From: a phage
NCBI GenBank assembly: GCA_037431425.1
Contig: GCA_037431425.1_4129.2
Strand: one strand, 5' to 3'
Length of the DNA: 64,000 nucleotides
A program made the position numbers and the translations under genes. Position 1 is the first letter of the stretch. The number at the start of each line of letters is the position of its first letter. A model generated the notes under the pieces. That model was not told where the DNA came from, made no database searches, and saw only the letters and a list, made by a program, of their open reading frames with translations. This document shows, one piece after another, positions 24,201-47,309 of the stretch.

Positions 24201-27200
24201 TCGTTAAGCTCAATAGTACTACGTTGTCGCCCAATAGCTTTCCAATAAATTGAATCACGTGATTGAGATTTGATATATAAAGTCCAAATGTTTTCACTAT
24301 CTGTGACTCTAATTATATCACCAACTTGATAGTTTTTAGCATTTGCTTCTTCTAAACTTATCTCTTGGATGTAAGCAGTTTTGCTATCATACCCAACATC
24401 ATACCAATCTGCATAAGACCAGTATTGAGTCATATCTAATGATGTTCCGAGTGATTCAACATAATCCGATTGCTTAATCATTTTATGTTGTCCTTCACCT
24501 TTATTTTCTAAAGTTATAGTAACAACACTACCTGCATTAGCTGGACTATTCATTAACTGAATATATCCGTTTTCATCGAAGTGAATAAAATAAACAGCAC
24601 TAGTTGATAATGGAGTCGGTAGATAACCGCTAGAACTTAAAATAACAGCGTCATTTTCTTTAAATTTATCCTTTTCAACTGCAATTACAAGTTCATTATT
24701 ATAAGTTAATACACGGAACGAAACCTCATTAGGGTTAACTTCTGTAGTTTTAACATTAAACACATCTTCCATAACAACACTATTAGTAGTTATGTTTTGT
24801 GATCTATAATAATTATTTGCACTTTCTACAAAGTTTCTACGTGCCTCTATTATATTCTGGAACCAAGTTTTATTAGAGCCTAAACCAGTGCCAACTTCTG
24901 GATATAATAAATCTACAACCTTACCTGACTTCGTAGTTTCTTGACCAATTAGAGAGTTCCACATAGAGTCCCAAATTAGTGGGTTAAAATTGTAACTTTC
25001 ACCCTCTTTACAAAGTTGATATTGATCATGTTTAACAACTTCTGTATTGTCCATATAGTAAGAAATAGTCAAAACACTAGTATCATCATTAACTTCAAAC
25101 TGCATATTACTAAGAATAAAAGAGTTTTCATTAATTGGTGCGAACCAAGGAATGTTCAACTGTGATGGATCTTTAATAATACGTGCAATGTCAGTACATG
25201 ATTTTGTTCTGGTATGAATAGGTGGTACATAAATTGTATCACGTACCCAGAAATAGTATTTTGTTACATAACTGTCAGTGGAGCTATCATATTCCAAAAA
25301 TGTACTATAATTATCTTCAAGTGCTGTTCCACTTGGAAGATACATATTATTATTTTTGTTTTTCTTAGCAACATCTTTACAGTACTTATCCCAGTTATAT
25401 GGTTCTACTGGTGAACAAACCCATTCCAACACATCAATAGTACTATGTGGCAACAAACGACCCCAGTTGTAACGTTTATATTCATTGGTTGCGTCAATAT
25501 CAACATTTCCATCTGCATCATAAATGGCACGAGTATAATCCAAATAAAAAGCGGTGCTAGTGTTCCACCATACTTGACCAACTTTTTCAGCACCCCACGC
25601 CTGAACCAATTCGCCATTACTATTATATTGAGCAGGGTCGATTGGTGAAGTATATGTTACGTTTTGCATTGCTGCACCAGGAATAACACCATTAATTGGG
25701 TCATAAACATTTAGATATAATGCAGTAATGTTTGTACGTTCATCATATGTAGTTGGACGTTCAAACAAAGTACTTTGTGGTGCTTTAAAACTATATTTTT
25801 TATCAATATATGCTTGACGCTCTTCAGTACTCACAAAACGCGAAACATAACGATACAAACGAGGGCGTGTATCTGGGTCAGTAAATTCGATATTAATTGA
25901 AGTATCAAATGGAACCACCATAACTTTGGAATCATCCCCAGCAGTATAATATTGACTTTCTACTGTTAAAGTATCTGGCATAAAGTTAGTTTCGTCCACA
26001 AAATAATAGTAATCACCATCTTCAAGAGGGATATCATCAGATAGAGTTACTTTACAGAATTTCTCAGCGTAAACATCTGTGGTTTCGATTGGTGTAATAG
26101 AAACCATTTTAACATTAGTGTCAATTAATTCAAAAATGTTCCATAACCCATTTCCATCTTTGAACATCCATACTGATTCAGGATTTTCACCTTTACCATT
26201 GATATACAACATACGGTCATTGAATGCAGTACTGAAATCTTTCGTAGTATAAGATACTTCATCTAATGTAACTGGACCAATATCAGGCAGTTGGATGTGT
26301 TCACTTCTACCACTACGCATTGGGAAAGAGAATTTACCATTTGGACGAGTAATCCATTGTGGGTCTTTTCCTTGTTCACCAAAGAATACAATATTGTTTC
26401 CATTGCCATTTGATGTTGCATTTTCATCAAAAGACATCATTTGTGGCTGCTGCTTAAATTGGTCATTAATCAATTTAAATTGAAGGTTTTTCTTTCCATC
26501 GATGTTACCATATGTACCAACTTTAAACGCCCATTCTTGTAATGCTTTATATTCATCAGTATCATAGGATTTAGAAACACGAAGAACACGTTCTAAAACT
26601 TGGTTTGTACCTTTGTCATGAATAAATCCTTTATAGAAATCAACACGACTTACATCACTACTAATCATACGTTGTAGATAATCACGAGATTGATAACCAA
26701 TCAAATGGCTAGACAATTCTTGTAATTGTACATCGCTAACGGGATGTTCATTGTCATAGTAATGTTGAAAATCTGTTACTAGAGTTTCAAATGATGGTAT
26801 TGTACCAGATTCCAAAATAATAAAACCAGGTGCTTGTAATCTACCAGTCCATGAACCAGTAATGTACCCATACATTTTAATTAGTTCCTGGATAGAACCA
26901 TAAGTTGGTTGATAGATATAATCACCAAAAATAGTCTTATCATCAAATATAACAGCATGTTCATATGAACACAAACTTAAACGGATTAATGCAATACGCT
27001 TATTAGAATCGGTTGTTCTAACAGTGAATATATTACCAATACGTGAAGTTTCGATTTCATATTGACGAATACCTTGGTTATTATCATCAAGCAATGACCA
27101 CACACCACCATTATTTTGTGTAATAGACTGTACTGAACCAAAATCCGAACCAAACTTAGCATTTGCAGCACTTGGTGTACAAGAGATAAATTCGCCAGTT

Positions 27201-40704: not shown

Positions 40705-41019
40705 TTAGCCTATATTTCGAGTACCATTAAGATAGTTTTGTACTCTTTGATTTGCTGGTATTCTAATTGTTACCCCACTTTTAAAATTATATATTGGGTC
40801 TTCTCCTAATATGTCTGGATTTAATAACGCAAAGATATAATATAATCGTTCATTTCCGTACATTTCGTATGCCAAACGCCATGGTTGGTATTCATATTTC
40901 AATGGTATCTCATAAAAATCATCAGTATCTGCCGGAATGATGTCACGTGGTAAATTATACCCAAGATACCATGTTTGTTTCACCTTAGCATAAGGTGAGT
41001 ATTGACTATAGTTGGACAT
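40705..41019 (-). CDS. LysM-like small baseplate protein (104 aa), gp53/gpX-like
   Basis: WRLAYEMYGNERLYYIFALLNPDILGEDPIYNFKSGVTIRIP resembles LysM and T4 gp53 (ANAIYGNPQLYWVLLMCNDNYDPYY); RBS GGAGGA; 1-nt stop/start overlap with upstream gene. Confidence 0.5.
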   Translation of the reverse strand: MSNYSQYSPYAKVKQTWYLGYNLPRDIIPADTDDFYEIPLKYEYQPWRLAYEMYGNERLYYIFALLNPDILGEDPIYNFKSGVTIRIPANQRVQNYLNGTRNIG

Positions 41020-41750
41020 TAAATAAATCCTCCGTTGCGTAATAGTTCACCTCGCTTAAAAGCATTTAGGTTGAATGTTTTAGTCATATAATCGGAAGTA
41101 GGTTGTTCTTCAAGCTGTATCATAACCGATATTTTTTGTGGAACCCAAACCTCATCTTGTGGGTTCATATACCCAGTACTTCTAAGTTGTTCAAAGAATT
41201 TCCTACTATCCATATCGGATAAGTTAAATGTACTGTCACTACTATTCAAAGGAACTTGAATATAAGAAACATCATTTGGATATGTAAAATTATAAGATTT
41301 TAAAATAACAGGAATATCATTATATGTATATCGCCCATACCCACTTAAAAGTAAGATTGGTGGTGGAGCACCTGCAATTGCAAGTTCTGGGTTATTCGCT
41401 GAAGCAGCTTGTCTACCAAAATCCATCAATGAAACTGAACGTATAAAATGGATACATGCTAATGTGTACATAGCTTCTGCTGCTGTGTTAGCATAAAACT
41501 CACCCTGAATGGTGAAAACAGTATTAGAAGTGTTCTTATAGTTGTTATAGTTACTGTTGGTATGTATCGGTGACTGTGTTTCATACTGAATTGACCTTTG
41601 TTCAGTAATTATTGGTGTTACAGTCCATACCAACCCATTAGTTGGACGCAGAAACGAAAGTAGTGTGGGTTCAGAACTATCTCCGAAATCTCCATATACA
41701 TAGTTAGCACCTGCGGCTTTAGGTCGTAATCGAATTCTACGATCAATCAT
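41019..41750 (-). CDS. Hypothetical baseplate/tail protein (243 aa)
   Basis: Start moved from track 41777 to ATG at 41750 (GGAG 8 nt upstream); a late box then sits 34 nt upstream. Confidence 0.5.
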   Translation of the reverse strand: MIDRRIRLRPKAAGANYVYGDFGDSSEPTLLSFLRPTNGLVWTVTPIITEQRSIQYETQSPIHTNSNYNNYKNTSNTVFTIQGEFYANTAAEAMYTLACIHFIRSVSLMDFGRQAASANNPELAIAGAPPPILLLSGYGRYTYNDIPVILKSYNFTYPNDVSYIQVPLNSSDSTFNLSDMDSRKFFEQLRSTGYMNPQDEVWVPQKISVMIQLEEQPTSDYMTKTFNLNAFKRGELLRNGGFI

Positions 41751-41783
41751 TTTTGATTCTCCATAATAAGGGAACATTTGATG

Positions 41784-41791
41784 TATTTATG
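41784..41791 (-). promoter_or_regulatory. Late-promoter-like box (CATAAATA) for the minus-strand baseplate operon
   Basis: Reverse complement of 41784-41791 is CATAAATA, 34 nt upstream of ATG at 41750. Confidence 0.4.
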
Positions 41792-41794
41792 GGT

Positions 41795-41822
41795 GGGACA
41801 AACTGGTTCTTAGTGCTATAAT
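41795..41822 (+). promoter_or_regulatory. Sigma70-like promoter with extended -10 for the gp55-gp47-gp46 operon
   Basis: GGGACA (41795-41800) - 16 nt - TGcTATAAT (41814-41822); weak -35, strong extended -10. Confidence 0.45.
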
Positions 41823-41831
41823 AACATTGAT

Positions 41832-41848
41832 GGTACAAGGATTGTACC
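41832..41848. promoter_or_regulatory. Palindrome GGTACAA-GGA-TTGTACC just downstream of the gp55 promoter
   Basis: 7-bp perfect inverted repeat at the predicted transcription start / 5' UTR; candidate operator or RNA hairpin. Confidence 0.35.
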
Positions 41849-41879
41849 TATTGGATTAGAACATGGAGAGTGTAACACA

Positions 41880-42719
41880 ATGACAAGTAGACCAAAGCGT
41901 AAAAAGTATCTCAACAATGCAGATTTACTTCGTGAAATACAAAAAAGTAAGATTTCATACTGCTGGTTATTAGATAAATCATATAGTATGTATGATTATA
42001 TTGTCTTTCATGAATCTGAAATCACGGCTGAGTTACTTGAAAAAGCTAAAGCAGCACGAATTAAAAGACTCAACAATGAAATGCTTGAAAGTATTCGTGC
42101 AAAGGAAAACATGAGTGCAAAAAAAGCAAAGGAATATGCAGAAGAGAATAATTTAGTTATTACTGACGTTCCAATTGATGAAGTTGTTATTCGTGTTATT
42201 ACTGATGAACACATTCCACCAGATACTAGAGTTAACTTTGAACCATTCAAGCATTATATTGTGGATAATGAAGGTATCCTTTATGAAGTTTGTCGTTCTC
42301 ACTGGAAAGGTGACCTAGAAACTGGTGAATTCTGCACTATTCACGGTAAAATTACTAATGAATTGGGTAAAATGTTCATTAAACTTGCAGAGGAAATCTC
42401 ACATAAATCTAATTATAGAAACTATACTTACTTAGATGAAATGATGGGCGATGCAAGAATTCAATTAGTTAAAAATGCACTACTCTTTAAAGAGAGTATT
42501 CTTTATAAAAAAGATAAACCAGCCGTACAATTAAATCCTTTCTCTTACTATACATCGTTTGTAAACAATAGCTTTCGTTCTATTTTGAATAGTGAGAAAA
42601 ATGTTCGAAATATACGTGATGATTTACTCGAAATGCATGGTTTTACACCATCACACACACGTCAAATTGAAATTGAATTGAACATGATTGAAAGGAAAAA
42701 TGAAGATGGCTCTATTTGA
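41880..42719 (+). CDS. 55: Late-transcription sigma factor, T4 gp55-like (279 aa, with a ~100-aa insertion)
   Basis: N-terminal KKYLNNADLLREIQ parallels T4 gp55 KYNYVNNKELLQAII; C-terminal NPFSYYTSFVNNSFRSILNSEKNVRNIRDD parallels [28 protein letters not shown]; T4 gene order 55-47-46 preserved. Confidence 0.7.
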   Translation: MTSRPKRKKYLNNADLLREIQKSKISYCWLLDKSYSMYDYIVFHESEITAELLEKAKAARIKRLNNEMLESIRAKENMSAKKAKEYAEENNLVITDVPIDEVVIRVITDEHIPPDTRVNFEPFKHYIVDNEGILYEVCRSHWKGDLETGEFCTIHGKITNELGKMFIKLAEEISHKSNYRNYTYLDEMMGDARIQLVKNALLFKESILYKKDKPAVQLNPFSYYTSFVNNSFRSILNSEKNVRNIRDDLLEMHGFTPSHTRQIEIELNMIERKNEDGSI

Positions 42720-43737
42720 TAAAGCAATTACATTCACTGATATTCACTTGGGATTAAAGAATAACAGTAAACAACACAATGAAGATTGTTTAAACTTCAT
42801 TAAATTTATGATAGATGAGGCAAAAAAGAATAATATCAAAGTTTGTGTTTTTATGGGAGATTATTTTCATAATAGAAGTAATATCAACATTCAAACACTA
42901 AACTATGGTTTACAGATTCTTCAACTACTGAATGACAATTTTGAAAAAGTATATTTTCTTGTTGGGAATCATGATATGTACCATAAGAACAAACGTGATA
43001 TCACAAGTATCAATATGGCTCAAGTATATGAAAATATCGAGTTCATCAATGAAATCACAACATTTGACGATTGTACATTCATTCCATTTATGATTGAAGA
43101 TGAATATAAACTATTACCTCAACTAAAAAGTAAGTATGTTTTCGGTCACTTAGAATTACCAGGGTACTTACTTAATAAGATGGTAGAAATGCCAGACCAT
43201 GGGAAAGAAACCGATGGTTCTTTTAGTGGGTGTGAATATGTTTTTAGTGGGCATTTTCATAAAAGGCAAGCAAAAACAACATCTAAAGGAACTCGTGTTG
43301 TTTATACTGGTAATTGCTTCCCACATAATTTTTCCGATACGTGGGATGATGCAAGAGGTGTAATGATTCTCGAACACGATAAAGAACCAATTTTTAAATC
43401 GTGGGATAGTGCACCAAAATATCGAACATTCACACTTTCCGAATTATTGACTGACCCCAGTTATTATCTTCAAGATAATACAATTTCTAAAGTTCAAATT
43501 GATATATCAATAACAACGGATGAGATTAGTTTTATTCGTGATACTTTTACTAAACTATACAACATTAGAGAGTTTAATGTTGTAACAAGTAAACAAAATG
43601 TATCAGAATTAATTGAAGATGGTGTCAATTTTGAAAGTACTGAATCAGTTGATGAGATTGTTTTACAACAAATCATGGAAATTGATTCACCAATGTTTGA
43701 TAAAAATCTTCTAATCCAAATTTACAGATCATTATAA
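42706..43737 (+). CDS. 47: Recombination endonuclease subunit, T4 gp47 / Mre11 (SbcD)-like
   Basis: Phosphoesterase motifs TDIHLG, GDYFH, GNHDMYHKN, GHLELPGY, FSGHFH; start moved from track TTG at 42688 to ATG at 42706 (RBS AAAGGA). Confidence 0.8.
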   Translation: MALFDKAITFTDIHLGLKNNSKQHNEDCLNFIKFMIDEAKKNNIKVCVFMGDYFHNRSNINIQTLNYGLQILQLLNDNFEKVYFLVGNHDMYHKNKRDITSINMAQVYENIEFINEITTFDDCTFIPFMIEDEYKLLPQLKSKYVFGHLELPGYLLNKMVEMPDHGKETDGSFSGCEYVFSGHFHKRQAKTTSKGTRVVYTGNCFPHNFSDTWDDARGVMILEHDKEPIFKSWDSAPKYRTFTLSELLTDPSYYLQDNTISKVQIDISITTDEISFIRDTFTKLYNIREFNVVTSKQNVSELIEDGVNFESTESVDEIVLQQIMEIDSPMFDKNLLIQIYRSL

Positions 43738-43745
43738 GGGACTAT

Positions 43746-45893
43746 ATGCTAAACATTACACGTATATCTATGCGAAACTTCTTTTCATTCGGTAATGCAC
43801 CACAAATTATTGAATTGAATAGTTCTGACATTTCATTAGTACTGGGTCAAAATAATGATGCAGTTATTGAAGGCGGTGACAGTTCTGGACGACGAAATGG
43901 TGTAGGAAAAAGTGCAATTATTCAAGGATTAGTTTTTGGATTATTTGGAAAAAGTATTGGGAATGATATTAAAATCCCCAACTTAGTTAATAAAACTAAT
44001 GGGAAAAATTGCGAAGTTGTGGTGGAGTTTGAAAAAGACGGTGTGCAATATATTGTTGAGCGTGGGAGAAGTCCCACGTATTTCAATCTTGTTACTTTAG
44101 GTAAAGATGACAAAATTGAAGATGAATCAAGGGGTGAAAAGAAAGACACTCAAGAAGATTTGAATGAAATTCTTGGAATATCCCAATTATTATTTGAACA
44201 TATTGTAGTACTGAATGCAAACGTTGAACCTTTCTTGGCGTTATCCACACAAAAACAACGTGATATGATAGAAGAACTTCTAGGTATAACACAGTTAACA
44301 GAAAAAGCCGAAATATTAAAGGAGATGTACAAGGATACTAAACGCTTAGCAGAGCAAGAAAAGTTTAAAAATGAAACAGTTGCTGCAAGTAACGAACGTA
44401 TTCAAAAAAGTATTGAGGTTCTTCAAGAACAGGCAAACCAATTTGAGATCGATAAAAGTAATAGAGTAGCGAAGTTAAATGAAGAGTTGAATATTTATAA
44501 AACTTTCGACTTCAATGAACTCTATAAAGCTGCTGAAGAGAAAGAGAAAGCTCTTATTCATAACACAAAGCGTAATGAAATAGAACGCCGTGTACAAGAT
44601 TTAGCTTTAAAATTTGATGCATATGACCGTGAGATTGAATCATCCAAACGTGCACTAAAACTAAGCATTGATAAACTAAAAACTATTGATATTAGTGCTG
44701 AGTTGGAAAATCATAATGAACTAGAGATATGGAAACAGTTAGAAGACATTCTTAAAGAGAATAATAACCAAAAACGTTTCAAAGAGCAAAAGCTAAACTC
44801 ACTAAAAGTTGCATTAAAAGGGTATGAATGTTCAATTAATGCTGAAATTGACAAATTATCAACCGTTGAAAATAGTAAATGTCCACTTTGTATGTCAGAA
44901 TTGGAACATAATGAACATACTTCTTCAATTAAAGATAAAATTCAAAGTACTATTGACGATCTTCAAGCCAAAATTGACAGTTCTTCTTCTGAAATTGAGA
45001 TTTTACTTAAAGAAATTGAGAGTATTGAGATTTTTGATATGCCACCTAAGCCTGTGACATATTATAATACACTTTCAGAAGCACAAATGCATGAACATAA
45101 GCTTCAAGAATTGATCAAAAAGAGTGAAGAAGAGCCAATAAACATCTATGCAAATGAACTTATGTCATCATATGATGAACTTAACTCATATGAACTAATG
45201 GAAGTTCCAGATACATTAAACAAATATGAAGTTAAAGAGTTGGAAATGACCGTAAATTCATTATCACAGCAATTAGATCGTGAATTGAAGACTACTAACA
45301 CATTTATTAGTCAAATTAATACCCTGAAGACTGATTCTTTAGTACCAATCGATTATAGTGACTATAATAATCTTGATAAAATGTCAAATCACCAAGATTT
45401 CTTGGTTAAATTACTTTTAAACAAGGATTCTTATGTCCGTAAACGTATTATTGAGCAAAATATCTCATATTTGAATACACGACTTCAGTACTATATCGAT
45501 ATGTGCGGTTCTGAGCATAATGTTGTGTTTTTGAATGATTTGAGTGTTGAAATTGAGAAGAGTGGGCAGTACTTTGACTATAAACAGCTTAGTCGTGGTG
45601 AGCGTACAAGGGTAAACATCGCATTATCTTGTGCTTTCCGTGATACATACGAGTCATTATATCAAAGTATCAATCTAATAGCACTAGATGAAGCTTGTGA
45701 TGTTGGTCTTGATTCAAGTGGTGTTGTTAAAGTGTGGTCAATCTTCAATGACATGGCTGCTATCAGAAATAAAAATGTATATATCATCTCACATAGAGAA
45801 GAACTAGTTTCTAAGACTGAACATATACTTAAAGTAACCAAAGAAGATGGTTTTAGTACTATAAGTTACTGTACAATTGATGATATCTATTAA
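43746..45893 (+). CDS. 46: Recombination ATPase, T4 gp46 / Rad50 (SbcC)-like (715 aa)
   Basis: Walker A GRRNGVGKS near N-terminus, long coiled-coil middle with CPLC zinc hook, C-terminal signature LSRGERTRVNIALSCAF and Walker B IALDEA. Confidence 0.8.
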   Translation: MLNITRISMRNFFSFGNAPQIIELNSSDISLVLGQNNDAVIEGGDSSGRRNGVGKSAIIQGLVFGLFGKSIGNDIKIPNLVNKTNGKNCEVVVEFEKDGVQYIVERGRSPTYFNLVTLGKDDKIEDESRGEKKDTQEDLNEILGISQLLFEHIVVLNANVEPFLALSTQKQRDMIEELLGITQLTEKAEILKEMYKDTKRLAEQEKFKNETVAASNERIQKSIEVLQEQANQFEIDKSNRVAKLNEELNIYKTFDFNELYKAAEEKEKALIHNTKRNEIERRVQDLALKFDAYDREIESSKRALKLSIDKLKTIDISAELENHNELEIWKQLEDILKENNNQKRFKEQKLNSLKVALKGYECSINAEIDKLSTVENSKCPLCMSELEHNEHTSSIKDKIQSTIDDLQAKIDSSSSEIEILLKEIESIEIFDMPPKPVTYYNTLSEAQMHEHKLQELIKKSEEEPINIYANELMSSYDELNSYELMEVPDTLNKYEVKELEMTVNSLSQQLDRELKTTNTFISQINTLKTDSLVPIDYSDYNNLDKMSNHQDFLVKLLLNKDSYVRKRIIEQNISYLNTRLQYYIDMCGSEHNVVFLNDLSVEIEKSGQYFDYKQLSRGERTRVNIALSCAFRDTYESLYQSINLIALDEACDVGLDSSGVVKVWSIFNDMAAIRNKNVYIISHREELVSKTEHILKVTKEDGFSTISYCTIDDIY

Positions 45894-46002: not shown

Positions 46003-46497
46003 TTATTTTGTATCTCTTTTTACATCAACCATGTTTAATTTACCGTCCTTAATTAGCTTTCTAGCTTGTTTTACACGAGCAGTAGTGTTGCTACCAGGGA
46101 CGACACCTAACCCTTCCAGAATTGCGTTTTGCTGCGTTGCTGGAAGCCTTTTAAACTTATTCACATCTACTGTTAGTGCTGTGTGATGTATCACTTGCTC
46201 TTCTAGTGGGATGTTGTTGTTCTTTTCAAGATAATCTGCCAGATTTCTTAGTACTTCATGTAAAGGCATATCAGTTAAATGCTTTCCATATCGGTTCCAT
46301 GCGTTGGAAACTTTACCTTCAAATGCGTTTATTTCATTCTGTAGAACTTCACGACAGTGTTGGTTACCATAATGGTAGTGATCCAGTACTGGTTTAGTTA
46401 TTGGTTCCTTAATTATAGGATCAATTCCTTTTTGCTTCTTTAGTAATTCATTACGATAGTTTGCAGCTTCTTTACTATCTTTTAATCTTTTCTTCAT
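46003..46497 (-). CDS. Endonuclease VII (T4 gp49)-like protein (164 aa), lacking the zinc-binding cysteines
   Basis: PVLDHYHYGNQHC...NAFEGKV...HEVLRNLADYLEKN parallels T4 endo VII HLDHDHELNG...CNAAEGQ...GVDYLEWLENLLTYLK; sits after the 55/47/46 block as gene 49 does in T4; only one Cys present. Confidence 0.45.
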   Translation of the reverse strand: MKKRLKDSKEAANYRNELLKKQKGIDPIIKEPITKPVLDHYHYGNQHCREVLQNEINAFEGKVSNAWNRYGKHLTDMPLHEVLRNLADYLEKNNNIPLEEQVIHHTALTVDVNKFKRLPATQQNAILEGLGVVPGSNTTARVKQARKLIKDGKLNMVDVKRDTK

Positions 46498-46588: not shown

Positions 46589-46618
46589 TTTGAGACAACT
46601 TTGAAGTTTGTGCTATAA
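46589..46618 (+). promoter_or_regulatory. Strong sigma70-like promoter firing into an ORF-free interval
   Basis: TTGAGA (46589-46594) - 18 nt - TGcTATAAT (46610-46618); no ORF of 60 aa or more downstream until the terminator at 47069-47093. Confidence 0.5.
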
Positions 46619-46624
46619 TGTTTG

Positions 46625-47093
46625 ATGTAGTAATGACAATCCTGTTGAATGCAGAAATGCATATAAATTAGAACCTGATCCTATCGAAAATGTAGATGGC
46701 AGATGAGCAGTTCAACAGTGCGATGAGCAGAAGAAACCCGTCAGAAGTGGGCATAGTTTGAACCCCTCACGGCAATGCGGCTCAATAAAGAACTCCGATA
46801 AGCATACAGAGAGTTCCTAGATAGACATATAAGGAATCACACCTTACCAGATTTGCTAAGGGAGTTTATTAATTGATTTTAATAAACAGCCTGAAGTTTG
46901 ATTGTATAGACTTTCAGGTGAGTGCTGGGATGAAAAGACCAGTGACCGTTGCATATGACCGTGATAGGGAGAAACAGAGCAACCCGCTTCCGTTTGTGAT
47001 TGATCATTTTACAATATAGATCCGTCCAAAATTCACGATACAATAAATGCTGAAACCATCAGCGTCAAGAAGAGACTTAATTGTCTCTTTTTT
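46625..47093 (+). ncRNA. Candidate ~470-nt non-coding transcript (promoter-to-terminator unit without a credible ORF)
   Basis: Bounded by the promoter at 46589-46618 and the terminator at 47069-47093; relatively GC-rich, several short stem-loops; only ORFs of 35 codons or fewer with poor RBS. Confidence 0.3.
47069..47093 (+). terminator. Intrinsic terminator ending the candidate ncRNA
   Basis: Stem AAGAGAC (47069-47075) / GTCTCTT (47082-47088), loop TTAATT, then T6. Confidence 0.6.
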
Positions 47094-47309
47094 ATTACTT
47101 TCATTCCCCTGCGGGGGGATGAAAATGTCCTCAACAAATCCCGTCAAGTTTTAAATCTTTAAAAGTTCTTTCTAAATTAATTTAATGAAATGAATATGAG
47201 TTACGTAGTAACGAATATTCTTCAGGTAACGAATGAAATGAGTTAGCTGAATCCAATATATTAAAATTAATCTTTCATAATTCAATTCAAATAATTCTGT
47301 AGTTTAAAA

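Follow-up and report, generated by a model that had tools for sequence, protein, structure and literature searches.

A 64,000-nucleotide stretch of phage DNA (contig GCA_037431425.1_4129.2; hereafter the window) carries a 129-bp spacer, positions 41,751 to 41,879, between two divergent transcription units. To its left, on the minus strand, begins a late operon of virion and baseplate genes, and to its right, on the plus strand, lies a gene for a late sigma factor of the gp55 type. An earlier note on this DNA had described the spacer as a compact divergent control region, in which a late-type box serves the baseplate operon, a promoter with an extended -10 element drives the sigma gene, and a perfect palindrome, GGTACAA-GGA-TTGTACC, sits at the predicted start of the sigma transcript. 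The layout was borne out: a T4-like late box faces the virion and baseplate operon, TGnTATAAT faces the gp55-like sigma gene (PHROG 12791), the late box is 3 bp from GGGACA, and the palindrome lies where it had been placed. The note had also suggested that the palindrome is a DNA operator for an early phage protein. Comparison with relatives argues instead that it is a covariation-supported stem-loop in the 5' untranslated region of the sigma mRNA, and not a DNA operator. We think it reasonably likely that this hairpin, at the 5' end of the late-sigma mRNA, recruits host CsrA and so controls translation or stability of the message.

The source of the window is a 121Q/Rak2-like jumbo phage. Over positions 41,000-43,800 the window is 99.5% identical to Escherichia phage ph0011 and 91-92% identical to 121Q and PBECO4 (genus Asteriusvirus), and the locus can still be made out, at 66-70% identity, in Rak2-like jumbo phages that infect Klebsiella, Cronobacter, Serratia, Pectobacterium, Erwinia, Yersinia and Salmonella. 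The spacer was sampled in 17 relatives from GenBank, 16 close relatives from IMG/VR and 13 close metagenome relatives, which gave 16 distinct versions of the element and one extra metagenome variant. The alignment of the whole spacer comprised ten relatives, and genome-wide counts refer to the assembled ph0011 genome (346 kb; 347 kb as the search space of covariance models). In the whole-spacer alignment, six conserved blocks stand out amid freely varying sequence: the start of the minus-strand gene with its Shine-Dalgarno (SD) sequence, TATTTAT, a -35-like element, GTGnTATAAT, ACAnGGATnGT and ACATGGAG.

The arms of the palindrome differ between relatives and stay complementary. They read GGUAC/GUACC in the window, GGUAU/GUAUC in UE-S1, GGUAC/GUGCC in JNE01, GGCAC/GUGCC in A4, UAAAAC/GUUUUA in GAP32, CBB and BF, UAGAAC/GUUCUA in Hallingskeid, and GGGAC with GUCUC or GUCCU in the Kae01 group. 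In an anchored, gap-free alignment, the five core pairs were unbroken in all 16 distinct sequences, from at least five clades. Compensatory double changes were found in three of the five core pairs, one of which occurs as AU, GC, UA, CG and UG, and a metagenome relative contributed one more compensatory variant. The proportion of paired cells was 91%, compared with 31-53% when the partners were slid by 1-3 columns, and the observed covariation score was reached by none of 500 shuffles. The same helix was returned independently by RNAalifold, and the hairpins folded better than shuffled controls (z -1.9 to -3.2), the window hairpin having a minimum free energy of -7.3 kcal/mol and a z of -2.8.

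The variation also distinguishes RNA from DNA. G.U cells were found 7 times in the core pairs and 11 times in the outer pair, and on the minus strand these would be A.C mismatches. The wobbles therefore fit an RNA of the plus strand only and break the symmetry of a DNA palindrome, as seen in UE-S1, JNE01 and Kae01. The invariant columns of the alignment (A9 C10 A11. G13 G14 A15 U16. G18 U19) spell A-C-A-n-G-G-A-U-n-G-U, and ACAnGGAUnGU, in which AC and GU form the closing pairs, is invariant in 15-16 of the 16 distinct relatives. Since a dimeric protein needs conserved symmetric half-sites, the combination of varying half-sites with a conserved asymmetric centre leaves the DNA operator reading unsupported. 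An operator for a dimeric phage or host repressor of the sigma promoter, bound to double-stranded DNA at +1, would account for a perfect 7-3-7 inverted repeat that overlaps predicted positions +3 to +19 and shares the intergenic DNA of the window with just one other perfect palindrome of its size. It does not account for half-sites as different as GGTAC, GGCAC, GGTAT, TAAAAC, TAGAAC and GGGAC, for conservation of the non-palindromic centre, or for the lack of a second palindrome copy in the 346 kb. This explanation is largely refuted, and we regard it as very improbable. The genome search for the half-site proposed in the earlier note turned up GGTACAA 75 times, in no paired arrangement, and the palindrome once; a repeated half-site or a regulon of palindromes was rejected on that count. 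Perfect palindromes with 7-bp arms and a 3-nt centre are common in the window (15, against 7.4 +/- 2.6 expected), as they would be if the element were a chance feature without function, a view that is refuted by the compensatory changes across genera and the invariant loop and to which we give next to no credence. A role of the element in timing late-sigma synthesis, as the earlier note had it, may still hold, then at the RNA level and most likely via host CsrA.

A covariance model of the hairpin gave no other significant match in the genome, the runner-up having an E value of 0.06. Scans of the window for tRNAs and Rfam families were empty; no match to Rfam 15 reached the gathering score, and the sole match in 41,780-41,900 was noise (E 4.9). 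An intrinsic terminator or attenuator was rejected because no U tract follows the stem in any clade and the hairpin is not in the terminator scan. Sequestration of the SD by the hairpin was rejected because loop and SD are both purine-rich and do not pair, and the SD is unpaired in most predicted folds. A mini-open reading frame (mini-ORF) of nine codons (41,830-41,859; AUG GUA CAA GGA UUG UAC CUA UUG GAU UAG) runs from the predicted 5' end through the hairpin, and its AUG counterpart in phage A4 shares the frame of the sigma ORF. As an explanation of the conservation it was rejected, its ATG at 41,830 being absent in the GAP32, CBB and BF clades and its peptide not being conserved, and it is probably not functional.

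Table 1. Features of the divergent spacer and its flanking genes, in window positions
Feature	Position	Strand	Basis or remark
gp53-like baseplate gene	40705-41019		Next after the 41019-41750 gene in the late operon; Pfam Phage_gp53
Virion structural gene, first of late (baseplate-region) operon	41019-41750	-	PHROG 12050, E 1e-150; ORF list; relatives' annotation
Shine-Dalgarno GGAGA of minus-strand gene	41758-41762	-	7 nt before ATG 41750-41748; TTCTCC invariant in 10 relatives
Late-promoter box cATAAATA (CATAAATA)	41784-41791 (core ATAAATA 41784-41790)	-	34 nt upstream of ATG
-35-like element GGGACAAA	41795-41802	+	Hexamer GGGACA 41795-41800, 3 bp from late box; class rGGACAA
Extended -10 TGcTATAAT	41814-41822	+	TGc 41814-41816, TATAAT 41817-41822
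Predicted start of late-sigma mRNA	41829-41830	+	7 nt past -10 hexamer
RNA stem-loop GGUAC-AAGGAUU-GUACC	41832-41848	+	Core ACAAGGAUUGU 41835-41845, GGA 41839-41841; covariation
Second ACAUGGA motif, ACAUGGAG at 41861-41868	41861-41870	+	Overlaps SD GGAGAG; candidate low-affinity CsrA site
Shine-Dalgarno GGAG of sigma gene	41865-41868	+	ATG at 41880
gp55-like late sigma gene, 279 aa	41880-42719	+	PHROG 12791, E 5e-154; PHROG 234 (late sigma), 3e-17; relatives' RefSeq annotation agrees

The conserved loop resembles a binding site for CsrA. The consensus selected by Escherichia coli CsrA in SELEX (systematic ligand evolution by exponential enrichment) is RUACARGGAUGU, in which ACA and GGA are 100% conserved and AC pairs with GU; GGA lay within a hairpin loop in 51 of 55 ligands. 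In nuclear magnetic resonance studies, RsmE contacts the A and also the GGA in a loop of the form ANGGAN. The phage loop conforms to the SELEX consensus; its two variable positions in the phage alignment are the N positions of ANGGAN, and U16 is an extra conserved base. Consistent with a two-site leader, a second GGA is found at the SD of the sigma gene, where ACATGGAG is conserved in most relatives. The distance from the loop GGA to the SD GGA is 26 nt in the window and 22-27 nt in all clades, within the 10-63 nt over which CsrA dimers bridge sites. ACANGGA occurs 26 times in the window and just twice within 60 nt upstream of a same-strand start, both times in the sigma leader, which is the only leader with two such motifs in the genome.

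The hairpin closely resembles one in the glgC leader of E. coli K-12, the archetype of a CsrA-repressed mRNA, which, read directly, contains ...cctGCACACGGATTGTGTGtgttccagagatgataaaaaAGGAGttagtcATG. Fourteen nucleotides (GCACACGGAUUGUG) are identical between glgC and the phage A4 hairpin, and the ACAnGGAUUGU of glgC matches ACAAGGAUUGU of the window, differing only at the N position. The 'extra' U relative to the SELEX consensus is shared by glgC as well. A covariance model built from the phage hairpins alone found the glgC hairpin as the sole match in the 501-nt glgX-glgC segment, with a score of 12.5 bits, which is weak when the search space is the full 347 kb. Uncultured relatives with a sigma of about 40% identity keep both promoters and have a short, hairpin-free leader, which we count in favour of the CsrA reading.

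Several observations weigh against that reading. The loop has 7 nt, as in glgC, compared with an optimum of 6, and extra loop nucleotides can lower the affinity of RsmE. The minimum-energy fold in Asteriusvirus closes two extra A-U pairs, which leaves a GGA triloop; the glgC hairpin folds similarly. The ungapped score against the consensus is 10/12, and the AT-rich genome holds 46 further GGA sites with that score. The second site is to some extent generic, AUGGAG being a common SD context in this phage, and ACA motifs upstream of the SD are reported as translation enhancers. In the RaK2/K64-1 clade, an unrelated hairpin, UCCAU-AUU-AUGGA, stands in place of the element, with its GGA base-paired. 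Finally, the benefit that a lytic phage would draw from CsrA repressing its own late sigma is not obvious.

The position of the hairpin raises the alternative that it is a mere 5'-terminal stabiliser against decay by RppH and RNase E, which involves no trans-acting factor and in which the CsrA-like loop is incidental. With the start placed 7 nt past the -10 hexamer, the first base of the 7-bp stem falls on the predicted +1 in the GAP32, CBB, BF, Kae01 and Hallingskeid clades and on +4 in Asteriusvirus; the RaK2 clade keeps a hairpin of other sequence at the same place, and stem covariation fits a purely structural role. A stabiliser needs no particular loop, yet the A, the GGA, the U and the closing AC/GU are invariant while the stem varies. 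It would also leave unexplained the conserved ACA before the SD, and the identity over 14 nt to a CsrA-binding hairpin in glgC counts against it. We consider this explanation unlikely.

Phage proteins are another potential ligand. T4 gp43, gp32 and RegA act on their own mRNAs, and a hairpin operator near the SD is a classic device of T4-type phages. Accordingly, the hairpin could be a translational operator for a phage-encoded RNA-binding protein that recognises the loop, for example the late sigma itself, under autogenous control. The genome has a single copy of the element, on the mRNA of the regulator in question, and the N-terminal extension of the late sigma, conserved, basic and about 120 aa long (RPKRKKYLNN...), is not in T4 gp55. 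This N-terminal motif is invariant in RaK2, which has a different hairpin, and present in the distant relatives that have none; protein and RNA therefore do not co-occur. An operator of this kind would leave unexplained the match of the loop to the CsrA consensus and to the glgC site, as well as the CsrA-consensus sites in the leaders of two other genes described below. It seems to us an improbable account.

A tblastn search of the ph0011 genome with E. coli CsrA found no csrA homologue (best E 0.82, noise). Among 88 phage records that encode CsrA, none is Rak2-like of Escherichia, Klebsiella, Cronobacter, Serratia or Pectobacterium, and one is an Erwinia record. With no phage csrA, the ligand would therefore be the CsrA or RsmA of the host. 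The named hosts of the phage family are all Enterobacterales, which carry csrA/rsmA, and the protein is nearly identical across these hosts.

Other leaders of the ph0011 genome carry similar sites. Of 6345 GGA sites, a single one matches the consensus at 12/12 positions. It lies in the leader of a gene for a PhoH-like PIN-ATPase (94,031-94,070), in the form of a 6-bp hairpin, GAGUAC-AAGGAU-GUACUC, 26 nt upstream of the gene, with an 11/12 site 19 nt further downstream, at the SD. At the same position, the Kae01-like clade has GGGGC-AAGGAAA-GCCCC, and no GGA-loop hairpin was found there in CBB, GAP32 or RaK2. In the leader of an exonuclease gene (about 246,500-246,524), a CsrA-like hairpin, AGUACACGGAUGUACA, matches at 11/12 positions, holds the AUG inside its loop and directly follows a TGcTATAAT promoter. 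A small phage CsrA regulon is thus a possibility suggested by these sequences; the PhoH-like and exonuclease cases are only partly conserved.

The promoter part of the locus is ordinary, as both promoter types have already been described at family level, for phage CBB. On the minus strand, the late box (TATTTAT in the plus-strand reading) is invariant in every relative, including those with an approximately 40% identical sigma, and transcription would start near 41,777. Of the 23 ATAAATA copies in the window, 14 fall within the 7% that is intergenic, and the majority of all 23 precede a same-strand start by 12-90 nt. In this phage the box varies at its first position, where C, A, T and G are all seen. 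Two octamers of this type are under-represented in the window (TATAAATA, 6 against 10.3 expected; CATAAATA, 4 against 8.3 expected), which, given the intergenic concentration of ATAAATA, suggests that sequences resembling late promoters are avoided inside genes.

On the plus strand, TATAAT is invariant in all relatives, and the TG of the extended -10 is found in all except the RaK2 clade. The earlier note had written this promoter as GGGACA-N16-TGcTATAAT and called it sigma70-like. Its elements are present and the TGnTATAAT is conserved; the 16-nt spacer, however, runs from GGGACA to TATAAT and includes the TGc, and GGGACA is probably not a weak TTGACA but a member of a phage-specific class, rGGACAA. 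GGGACA agrees with TTGACA at 4 of 6 positions at the 16-bp spacing, and rGGACAA fits better. Promoters of the class rGGACAA-N12-TGnTATAAT are present in at least 12 copies in ph0011, where they precede the genes for primase, exonuclease, ATP-dependent protease and late sigma, among others, and are distinct from the canonical TTGAC(T/A) early promoters of this phage. TGnTATAAT is intergenic only three times in the window (18,851, 41,814 and 46,611), each time with an rGACAA element 16 nt upstream. CBB, GAP32 and BF phages carry TGGAACG at the -35-like position, which matches the published TGAAACG class. A generic sigma-70 scan of the window was non-discriminating (54 sites, 52 expected). The promoter elements are significant because of their context, that is, intergenic concentration, and their conservation across genera, and not because of raw counts. 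Relative to the sigma promoter, the late box occupies positions of about -45 to -39, and about 52 bp separate the two predicted starts; given this proximity, polymerase at the late promoter could interfere with the sigma promoter.

The recurrence of the extended -10 at a non-coding RNA promoter, which the earlier note had pointed out, holds exactly: GTGCTATAAT is found at 46,610-46,619. There (46,590-47,100), a strong promoter, TTGAGACAA...GTGCTATAAT, with 11 of 12 consensus positions, faces about 470 nt without an ORF, which end at a terminator-like hairpin (47,067-47,092) and make up a candidate non-coding RNA. Beside this promoter lies a cATAAATA late box for the divergent gene 46,003-46,497, the same layout as in 41,751-41,879. 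The ORF-free stretch (46,626-47,095; 470 nt) was rejected as a CsrB-like sponge, since it holds 4 GGA against 3.9 expected and has no Rfam match. Another arrangement was seen at about 322,880-335,900 of ph0011. There the canonical early promoters have a -35 that forms part of a G+C-rich inverted repeat, GGTTGACTTCGGTCAGCC, after which come a T run and TGtTATAAT; in at least four copies, a hairpin resembling a terminator thus also serves as the -35 of the promoter that follows it.

The start of the minus-strand virion gene was set at the ATG at 41,750, behind the SD GGAGA, as annotated in relatives. The ATG of the longest ORF, at 41,777, would coincide with the predicted late transcription start and was rejected. 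Pfam gave no match for the sigma or its neighbour, and both were identified with PHROGs. Downstream of the late sigma gene lie SbcD-like and SbcC-like genes, the counterparts of T4 gp47 and gp46. The ph0011 genome also encodes a sigma-70-family sigma factor (313,766-314,731) distinct from the gp55-like sigma, and further proteins of transcription or translation type, namely a DksA-type zinc-finger protein, a ribosome hibernation factor (S30EA), an IF-3 homologue and peptidyl-tRNA hydrolases.

Another palindrome, CAGTACTG, with the 12-bp palindrome TTCAGTACTGAA as its extended form, is far more frequent than expected both in the window (e.g. at 26,227, 32,300, 34,764, 56,895 and 57,704) and in the ph0011 genome. 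With at most one mismatch, CAGTACTGAA occurs 39 times in the window, against 5.1 expected. The ph0011 genome holds AGTACT 740 times (88 expected) and CAGTACTG 164 times (4 expected). By contrast, 0 copies of GGTACC (the KpnI site) were counted, where about 30 would be expected. Copies of the CAGTACTG type lie in coding and intergenic DNA, and several adjoin late-type promoters. This palindrome could be a binding, nicking or modification site.

In the mechanism that we propose, the ATAAATA late box on the minus strand would be read by the phage's own gp55-like sigma and drive the virion and baseplate operon, and the phage-class promoter GGGACAA-N-TGcTATAAT on the plus strand would drive the gene for that sigma. 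The palindrome would act after transcription, as a stem-loop that begins within the first 4 nt of the sigma mRNA. Its loop would display ACAnGGAUn closed by AC/GU, and a second motif, ACAUGGAG, would cover the SD 22-27 nt downstream. As this two-site design is that of the glgC leader, host CsrA (RsmA in Pectobacterium and Erwinia) is proposed to bind it. CsrA or RsmA on the leader would set the amount of late sigma that is translated, repression being the more likely direction of control. The 5'-terminal stem, with or without CsrA, may also shield the mRNA from 5'-end-dependent decay. Stabilisation and control of translation need not exclude each other, nor does the sequence settle the direction of regulation.

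A further-reaching and distinctly tentative idea is that Rak2-like enterobacterial jumbo phages have wired host CsrA into their switch from early to late expression. A mimic of the glgC leader would make sigma synthesis track free CsrA, and the leader would serve as a timer or a sensor of host physiology. The pool of free CsrA should change abruptly after host transcription ends and the CsrB and CsrC decoys, which are short-lived, decay. The leader could then stand in for the replication coupling that gp33 and gp45 provide in T4, which was not detected in CBB, and the late sigma could share its control with a small phage CsrA regulon, for which the PhoH-like PIN-ATPase, the exonuclease and nrdD are further candidates. 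The master regulator of late genes in a virulent phage would be under a global post-transcriptional regulator of the host, a situation of which our literature searches found no case, and the timing or yield of late expression would be tied to the carbon and growth state of the host. Jumbo phages of this kind are in development for therapeutic use against E. coli, Klebsiella and Salmonella. Should the ligand not be CsrA, the element is still a clean, covariation-supported regulatory RNA on the mRNA of a viral sigma factor.

Known systems resemble parts of this arrangement. The late box is like T4 late promoters in being an A/T-rich box of -10 type (TATAAATA in T4, nATAAATA here) without a -35, upstream of virion genes, and this phage likewise encodes a gp55-like sigma. 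It differs from T4 in the variable first position of the box and the extra N-terminal region, approximately 120 aa, of the sigma. For phage CBB, Buttimer et al. (2017; PMC5259590) report the ATAAATA late motif at 35 sites, and also in GAP32. The promoter section of that paper describes 'divergent RpoD-like' promoters, which combine a classic -10 with TGAAACG as the -35, upstream of genes for DNA synthesis; one of these (Porf_244) precedes the gp55-like CBB_244 and is the orthologue of the window's sigma promoter. These CBB and GAP32 promoters, of which the rGGACAA class is the Asteriusvirus counterpart, share with the present one the classic -10, the non-canonical -35 and the location upstream of DNA-metabolism and gp55-like genes; the -35 consensus is rGGACAA here and TGAAACG there, and the hairpin is unmentioned in that promoter section. 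Homologues of gp33 and gp45, unlike in T4, are not among the proteins reported for CBB.

The leader has counterparts among bacterial mRNAs. It resembles that of flhDC, an mRNA stabilised by CsrA bound near its 5' end, in that the phage element lies at the 5' end, where CsrA would protect it. Stabiliser stem-loops of the ompA type have no loop-sequence requirement; the phage stem is like them in starting within 0-3 nt of the predicted 5' end and differs in its invariant loop. In the leader of the ColE7 lysis gene cel, translation is repressed by CsrA (PMC2896534); that case concerns a plasmid and not a phage, and a lysis gene and not a transcription factor, and has been verified experimentally. 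In glgC, by the published mechanism, a hairpin tethers a CsrA dimer that then bridges to the SD and excludes the ribosome. Both leaders have a short hairpin presenting ACAnGGAUUGU (GCACACGGAUUGUGUG in glgC, GGCACACGGAUUGUGCC in phage A4, GGUACAAGGAUUGUACC in the window) and a second GGA at the SD, 31 nt away in glgC and 22-27 nt away in the phages. The phage element stands at the very 5' end of the predicted transcript, whereas the glgC hairpin lies inside a longer leader with four CsrA sites, and the target of the predicted CsrA binding in the phage is a viral sigma factor and not a metabolic enzyme. We class the element as a new candidate CsrA-type leader, notable for its location on the mRNA of a viral late sigma factor.

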